A stretch of DNA of 64,000 nucleotides, from the NCBI GenBank assembly GCA_963703955.1, contig CAVPGK010000026.1, positions 29,119 to 93,118 of the forward strand. The letters are read 5' to 3'. Source of the DNA: Nitrospirota bacterium. Its GTDB lineage: Bacteria; Nitrospirota; Nitrospiria; Nitrospirales; Nitrospiraceae. Positions 24,308 to 25,296 of this stretch are shown here, piece after piece. Position numbers and translations under genes: made by a program. Every line of letters begins with the position of its first letter. Positions within the stretch are counted from its first letter, which is position 1. Below the pieces are notes generated by a model. The model did not search any database. It was not told where the DNA came from and saw only the letters and a program-made list of their open reading frames with translations.

Positions 24308-24360
24308 GTAATGGACGCGCTGCGCGTTGAATCGGCTAGGCAGATCGACAGGAGAGTTGA

Positions 24361-25296
24361 ATGAAAAAGGACGAAAAGGCCACTGCGGTTGCTGAACTGC
24401 GCGAGAAGTTTTCGCGGGCCAAGCTTGCCGTGATGACGGAATGTACGGGGATTGAAGTGAATCAAGTCACGGAACTTCGTAAGCAGCTGCGGAGGGCCAA
24501 CGCGGAGTTCAAAGTCATGAAGAACACGCTGGCGGCTCGAGCTGTCGAGGGAACCCCGTTCATGAACGCGAAAGCCCATTTCAAGGGGCCTTTGGCAGTC
24601 CTGATCGGCTATGACGATCCTGCACTTCCGACGAAAATTTTGCGGGATTTTATGCGGGCGGAGAAACGCGAAGAGAAGATGAAGATTACCGTCGGGGTCT
24701 TGGAGGGCAAGCTGCTTGATGCGCCGCAGCTGGTCGCCGTCGCCAATTTGCCGACGAAAGATGTCCTGCTGTCCATGCTGCTCTCGGCGATGCAGGGGCC
24801 GCTTCGTGGGATGGTGTATGCGTTAAGTGGGTTGTTGAGAGGATTGGTGGGAGTTATTGTTGCGATTCAAGATAAGAAGAAAGGAGCGGGAGAGATGCCG
24901 ACGACAGAAGGAAAGTTATCACAGGAAGAGTTTATTAAAGCGATTGAAACCATGAGCGTGTTGGAGTTGTCCGAATTGGTGAAAGGGCTTGAGACGCGAT
25001 TTGGGGTCACGGCGGCGGCGCCGGTGGCGGTAGCCGCGACTCCGGCGGGCGGCGGGGGAGCGGCGGCAGCGGCGGAGGAAAAGACATCGTTTGATGTCAT
25101 CCTGGCCAGCGCTGCGGCGGACAAGAAAATTCAGGTCATCAAAGTGGTGAGGGAGTTGACCAGTCTGGGCTTGAAGGAAGCGAAGGACCTGGTAGAGGGT
25201 GCGCCCAAGCCGGTTAAGACCGGTGCGACGAAGGAAGAGGCCGAAACGATGAAAAAGAAGTTGGAAGAGAACGGAGGTAAGGTCGAGATCAAATAG
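24361..25296 (+). CDS. rplJ: In-frame fusion ORF of ribosomal protein L10 (aa 1 to ~175) and L7/L12 (aa 179-311)
   Basis: L10 motifs ([24 protein letters not shown]) continue without a stop into L7/L12 motifs. Confidence 0.9.
24895..25296 (+). CDS. rplL: 50S ribosomal protein L7/L12 from predicted internal start
   Basis: AAGGAG (24881-24886) 8 nt before in-frame ATG 24895; [56 protein letters not shown]. Confidence 0.85.

Follow-up and report, generated by a model that had tools for sequence, protein, structure and literature searches.

A single reading frame for ribosomal proteins L10 and L12, with a candidate nested start for free L12, in the order Nitrospirales

In a 64,000-nucleotide stretch of Nitrospirota DNA (the whole stretch analysed here, referred to as the window), the genes for ribosomal proteins L10 (rplJ) and L12 (rplL) form one uninterrupted reading frame, and this L10–L12 fusion is real and order-wide in Nitrospirales. 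We consider it likely that one mRNA from this locus gives rise to two products, a 311-residue L10–L12 fusion and a free 133-residue L12, which together would build a stalk with one tethered arm. Every translational GTPase is recruited by the L10–L12 stalk, which is regarded as a non-covalent assembly of two gene products in a ratio of 1:4 or 1:6. A whole nitrifying order with cultured members appears to encode it as a single frame with a nested start, which would provide natural tests of whether L12 needs to leave the ribosome and rebind, of how a 1:5 ratio is set without termination-reinitiation, and of how elongating ribosomes share a message with a very strong internal initiation site. As L10 and free L12 would be hidden in one database entry, the arrangement also affects annotation, marker-gene sets and protein quantification.

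The fused reading frame and its distribution

Translation of the window gives 311 stop-free codons on the forward strand, from an ATG at 24361 to a TAA ending at 25296, encoding L10 and then a complete L7/L12. Pfam assigns residues 1–97 of the 311-residue protein to the L10 core (PF00466, E 3.6e-26), and all bL12 features are present: PF16320 at 188–236, PF00542 at 244–311 and an Ala/Gly-rich hinge stretch between them. The elements of the locus are as follows.

24350..24354, forward strand: Shine–Dalgarno (SD)-like AGGAG of the upstream (rplJ) start, from the sequence; anti-SD duplex -9.2 kcal/mol versus -13.0 kcal/mol at the internal start
24361..25296, forward strand: fused rplJL ORF, 311 aa, uL10–linker–bL12, from the ORF, its translation and Pfam
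24361..24756, forward strand: uL10 globular rRNA-binding domain, residues 1–132 (PF00466 at 1–97; pLDDT 82–93 per 10-residue block)
24757..24885, forward strand: uL10 helix 8, residues 133–175, with three predicted L12-dimer sites (continuous helix in the model; alignment with T. maritima)
24878..24886, forward strand: candidate internal SD sequence AGAAAGGAG, within codons K173-K174-G175-A176, complementary to the 3' tail of the genome's own 16S rRNA
24886..24921, forward strand: predicted flexible linker, residues 176–187, covering the SD–ATG spacer and the L12 N-terminal extension (model; conserved length)
24895..25296, forward strand: nested in-frame rplL ORF, predicted free bL12 of 133 aa starting at Met179 (conservation, SD, mRNA structure)
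24922..25068, forward strand: bL12 N-terminal dimerisation domain, residues 188–236 (PF16320, E 1.6e-19)
25090..25293, forward strand: bL12 C-terminal factor-binding domain, residues 244–311 (PF00542, E 7e-28)

The original prediction, made from the sequence of the window, had described L10 as running into a complete L7/L12 without a stop, and the open frame and the Pfam domains bear this out. It had also noted AAGGAG 8 nt ahead of an in-frame ATG at 24895; the motif lies at 24881–24886 and the ATG, which encodes Met179, at 24895–24897, and the SD extends beyond this core to the full AGAAAGGAG at 24878–24886. Its account of the junction codons stands as described, but the K-K-G that it counted as the usual end of L10 already contains the beginning of the SD. 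A canonical rplJ–rplL pair is made of two ORFs; no stop follows L10 in the window or in any of 50 Nitrospirales loci. The SD and start codon of its own that a separate rplL would have are present at the fused locus as a sequence signal. The locus occupies the usual operon position, with rplK and rplA upstream and rpoB downstream, and the protein collection contains an identical sequence, in a cluster of four members of 311 aa.

The source genome is an 82% complete draft, which could raise the suspicion that a sequencing or assembly error deleted a stop codon. We compared the frame with 41 genomes (its own and 40 relatives) and found a full-length, stop-free match in 38, single-contig genomes included; one further match was cut by a contig end, and the two genomes without a match were fragmented assemblies. 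Short open frames in four genomes (G057, G212, G327 and G016) proved to be contig ends. A phylum-wide sample of 301 genomes comprised 86 within the order Nitrospirales and 215 outside it. Within the order, 83 of the 86 had a full-length, stop-free frame, two were split by contig ends yet fused at the junction, and one had no match. Among the matches listed for the 215 genomes outside the order, none was full length and stop-free; they came as two separate hits or as a single hit interrupted by stops. Three assembled contigs belonging to close relatives, obtained in two DNA runs and one RNA-library run, span the junction gap-free among the differences listed (a fourth run, X16, had no junction coverage). 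The original prediction had argued that a simple indel error would not account for the missing spacer and had proposed checking both sequence data across the junction and the junction in other Nitrospirota genomes. The recurrence of the stop-free frame across 38 of the 41 genomes and the contigs from three independent runs, with order members fused and not separate, leave an assembly error with a negligible probability.

To place the fusion in its phylogenetic context, we examined 130 loci, of which nine were left out as one half was not detectable; both halves could be read in 121, 50 of them fused and 71 separate. In a tree of L1, L10 and L12, all 50 fused loci formed one clade (support 0.992) within the class Nitrospiria (0.999), and the sister lineages of Nitrospirales had separate rplJ and rplL genes. 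Records of homologues were named Nitrospira and Nitrospirales. Six loci with separate genes (L092, L093, L098, L099, L108 and L110) carry the submitter labels Nitrospira, Nitrospiraceae or Nitrospirales, yet they branch with Thermodesulfovibrio-type records, outside the class Nitrospiria, and were rejected as counter-examples. As a one-locus marker, the fusion could identify true Nitrospirales.

Among 12 separate-gene loci of the class Nitrospiria, a spacer of 28–100 nt separates the stop of L10 from the start of rplL, and three of these separate-gene sisters (L032, L060 and L074) have AGAAAGGAG ahead of rplL and an N-terminally extended L12, as in the fused forms. The simplest history, we infer, is that the ancestor of Nitrospirales lost the L10 stop together with the spacer in a single deletion. 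Such a deletion would have turned the ribosome-binding site of rplL into a coding linker, with read-through retained since. In two Actinomycetota loci (L127 and L128), the rplJ stop abuts the rplL ATG with zero spacer (TAG-ATG and TAA-ATG), one substitution away from a fusion.

The internal start signal

The junction carries an unusually strong initiation signal. Every base of AGAAAGGAG is complementary to CTCCTTTCT, which comes after GATCAC at the 3' end of the 16S gene on contig C18 of the same genome; the tail was read from the gene, and the end of the mature rRNA may differ. In all 48 distinct fused ORFs (50 fused loci minus two exact duplicates), the junction ATG had the strongest anti-SD pairing of any in-frame ATG, with a mean energy of -12.6 kcal/mol; the mean was -3.9 kcal/mol for the remaining 322 in-frame ATGs and -9.0 kcal/mol for the rplJ start. 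The internal SD was stronger than the same ORF's rplJ SD in 44 of the 48, and the distance from SD to ATG was 8 or 6 nt in 46. The same SD–ATG combination was found in 18 of 18 further loci covering the junction, whose species may overlap with those of the earlier loci. As the loci are related, these counts describe conservation and are neither independent tests nor p-values.

Codon choice at the junction follows the signal. The junction lysine was encoded by AAA in 41 of 42 cases, versus 29% AAA elsewhere in the ORF, and the junction glycine by GGA or GGG in 42 of 42, versus 49% elsewhere. When the junction was recoded synonymously, the observed SD was stronger than the recoded mean in 47 of the 48 ORFs (L022 fell below it); p reached 0.05 or less at just 17 of the 48 loci, with a median of 0.08, a modest result that arises because K-G-E codons are purine-rich anyway. 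In the family f3, the SD is written in another codon frame (AAG GAG GAx), which yields different linker residues, and it is therefore the nucleotide signal and not the peptide that is conserved. Another family, f4 (L041, L042 and L044), has two in-frame ATGs three codons apart at the junction, within K-G-M-G-E-M; the SD lies 8 nt ahead of the second and immediately ahead of the first.

Other properties of the site are consistent with initiation. Met179 was invariant in 123 of 123 close homologues, Met198 being the only other invariant methionine. Of 57 windows of 50 nt taken along the ORF, the one at the internal ATG had the least mRNA structure, at -4.2 kcal/mol, with the rplJ start at -5.1 kcal/mol. 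The residue after the internal methionine was P, S or A in all 48 ORFs, and such a residue at the second position fits removal of the initiator methionine. Codon bias did not differ consistently between the L10 and L12 halves, and a search for internal sigma-70 promoters between 24000 and 25500 found none. Taken together, these sequence comparisons strongly support the internal ATG as a maintained start, and the nested start that the original prediction proposed gains support from the best SD in every ORF, the invariant methionine and the unstructured mRNA.

Free L12, the stalk model and its alternatives

We looked for another source of free L12. PF00542 gave a single strong locus in 120 of the 121 genomes of the order, its 11 additional matches being weak and partial, and a tblastn search of the source genome returned a single L12 match and no separate rplL, so a paralog was rejected as the source. 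Because no separate rplL was found, the internal start would be needed to supply free L12.

The L10 of T. maritima binds three L12 dimers (1:6). Helix 8 of the fusion aligns without gaps with this protein (1zav) up to residue 174, whereas the other seven L10 alignments listed end by residues 123–156, and helix 133–175 is continuous in the predicted structure. Since helix 8 matches the T. maritima length and is modelled as a single helix, it is predicted to offer three L12-dimer sites, that is, six L12 slots. L12 binds as dimers to 10-residue sites, four or six L12 per stalk, and E. coli with one L12 dimer per ribosome shows poor growth and translation, according to PMC3299993; a ribosome with the fusion only would have half a dimer. 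Beyond the helix, residues 176–187 have no secondary structure in the predicted model (pLDDT below 50 at 176–185). Its L12 part was predicted at low confidence (pTM 0.47), with no defined position for the tethered L12.

The junction also appears to have been held open. The distance from the helix-8 isoleucine to the L12 leucine is 16–18 residues in all 48 ORFs. In the stretch that runs from the helix-8 end to the SD core, every one of the 48 has at least one codon that is a single substitution from a stop, and in none is it a stop, even though these near-stop codons vary (K, R, Q, T, E and others). A reachable stop that is never taken, together with a constant linker length, argues against a neutral accident, without thereby proving function.

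The fused ORF is expressed, as two published proteomes show. In N. marina, the proteome supplement (PMC8115632, file 4) has a single 311-aa 'L7/L12' entry with 67–104 spectra; by NSAF it ranks fifth of 18 ribosomal proteins, at 1.5 times the median of the 17 others. In N. moscoviensis, the iBAQ of 'rplJL' is 1.8 times the median of 46 (rank 5 of 47; PMC9381531, file 2). The expected ratio is 1 for the fusion only, 2.3–2.4 with three free L12 and 3.1–3.4 with five. The observed ratios are thus above 1 yet below the 1:6 prediction, in data in which single-copy proteins themselves spread 8- to 12-fold; they lean toward extra L12 beyond the fusion and are compatible with the fusion alone as well. 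The tables are given per protein, so an intact junction is not visible in them.

In the reading that we favour, the upstream start would give the 311-residue fusion and the internal start the free 133-residue L12. The fusion would bind 23S rRNA as the sole L10 of each ribosome, and its L12, tethered through some 12 residues of linker predicted to be flexible, would pair with a free L12 and take one slot, most simply the distal one, leaving about five free L12 to occupy the remaining slots. As there is no stop codon, termination-reinitiation cannot couple the cistrons and the ratio would be set by the strengths of two de novo starts, of which the internal one is expected to be the stronger.

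Several other explanations deserve weighing. Both starts might work, with the fusion serving as a precursor and a cut in its linker leaving a conventional, non-covalent L10(L12)6 as the mature stalk. The linker is predicted to be disordered and exposed, and per-protein proteome tables could not reveal whether the junction stays intact; yet no motif is conserved beyond the residues that the SD encodes, and the f3 linker peptide differs. We regard such processing as improbable, if the foremost of the alternatives. A little less probable is that the tethered L12 is a neutral passenger, left by an accidental stop loss and dangling without a role while free L12 fills all six slots. Fusions in several unrelated lineages, many of them singleton clusters (13 of 20), look as if loss of the stop were tolerated. 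Against this, all 48 ORFs could acquire a stop by one substitution, at codons that vary and lie outside the SD core, yet none of the junctions read has reverted among sequences down to 57% identity, and the linker keeps its 16–18 residues.

It is also conceivable that the fusion is the only product, the SD–ATG being a relic and the ribosome running on a single tethered L12 or on fusion dimers. Ratios of 1.5 and 1.8 are compatible with 1, and there is no separate rplL. This sits poorly with an SD that has stayed near-maximal at a fixed distance from the ATG, is written in biased codons and occurs in two codon frames, with a helix 8 that retains three full binding segments, and with the dimeric binding of L12, ribosomes with one dimer being already defective (PMC3299993); we judge it very unlikely. 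Still less credit goes to a programmed frameshift at the A-rich junction that frees L10 and makes the fusion a minor read-through product. Counted from eight codons before the ATG, the -1 frame meets a stop within 0–1 codons in 22 of the 48 ORFs, whereas the remaining 26 run 7–178 codons to their next -1 stop, +1 stops lie 8–28 codons away, and a slippery heptamer occurs in only three of 48. With no conserved signal among the 48 ORFs, we rejected it.

Comparison with other fusions and with known stalks

Database records partly reflect the fusion. The protein of N. moscoviensis is entered in UniProt as 'rplJL', a 'Multifunctional fusion protein' of 312 aa (A0A0K2G9H7), and the fused annotations in Nitrospira that the original prediction mentioned do therefore exist. 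It is the same fusion, recorded as a label only, and no internal start is annotated in the proteome rows; most database records name the 311-aa protein simply L7/L12. The word 'ribosomal' is absent from the main text of PMC8115632 and PMC9381531. The fusion is not mentioned in the main text of PMC5012046, PMC6606698, PMC12342949 and PMC9040806, and the 12 supplements of PMC11410670 that were searched, of 15, contained no match. Full-text literature searches, with subscription journals and bioRxiv supplements outside their reach, returned no study of an L10–L12 fusion. The label 'rplJL' is thus already in the databases, and the fusion as a studied subject was not found in the literature searched. 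Among solved structures we found no fused chain; the 41 sequences matched at E <= 1e-8 were all separate L10 or L12, of at most 180 residues.

Fusions also occur in other phyla. Among the best 150 representatives in a 50%-identity library, 37 hold both halves in order. We set aside 15 of these by eye as fragments or frameshift-like artefacts and judged 22 to be full-length fusions, one from Nitrospirales and 21 others that are 31–45% identical to the 311-aa query. The latter include proteins of Armatimonadota (NLC55322.1), Chloroflexota (GIW11759.1 and MCL6648797.1), Bipolaricaulia (MFQ5793823.1) and Fervidibacterota (MFA4044774.1); of the 20 clusters looked up among them, 13 were singletons, for which errors are possible. 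Like the Nitrospirales protein, these are L10–linker–L12 chains, 297–332 aa in length and all with a long helix 8, and in most of them a linker rich in G and E leads to an M, V or L where L12 begins. Four non-Nitrospirales fusions (P0130, P0141, P0168 and P0170) have V or L in place of M at this position, which at the protein level would fit GTG or TTG starts.

In a quick tree, the Nitrospirales clade (SH-aLRT 97) was nested among separate-gene Nitrospiria (99), the 21 other fusions fell outside it, and the well-supported branches require at least two changes between the fused and the separate state. The fusions of other phyla therefore probably have independent origins, as judged from this phylogeny. 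The same searches brought up proteins of another kind: P0129 (593 aa) and P0135 (953 aa) have six to seven tandem repeats resembling the L12 C-terminal domain and neither L10 nor the L12 dimerisation domain, and P0135 runs on into a repeat-rich helical region. Further multi-repeat L12-like proteins include P0159, P0160 and P0164.

We tentatively suggest, giving it somewhat less than an even chance, that these fusions represent a recurrent alternative stalk design, fixed in Nitrospirales and independent elsewhere, in which the tethered L12 is under selection and the odd-numbered others come from the nested start. The tether might be selected as a non-exchangeable arm or as a nucleus for stalk assembly, with the strength of the nested start setting the stoichiometry.

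The gap between rplA and rplJ is 53 nt (24308–24360), and no Rfam match of the L10-leader kind was found between 19500 and 25600 at E <= 1, so leader-based autoregulation of rplJL is not evident.

Two known systems resemble the fused locus in part, and the resemblance goes no further. The C terminus of archaeal and eukaryotic uL10 (P0) bears its own factor-binding tail, which is P1/P2-like and not homologous to bL12; what it shares with the fusion is a stalk base with a covalent factor-binding end. The gene infB produces IF2 alpha and beta from nested in-frame starts, so that, as proposed here, two in-frame products come from one gene, although the IF2 isoforms are not fixed-ratio subunits of one complex. 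The closest comparison is the canonical stalk, uL10(bL12)4 or uL10(bL12)6, of E. coli, B. subtilis and T. maritima (1zav, 1zaw and 1zax), which has the same domains, gene order and operon. There rplJ and rplL are separate genes, whereas in Nitrospirales neither a stop nor a spacer divides them and one L12 is predicted to be covalently joined to L10.
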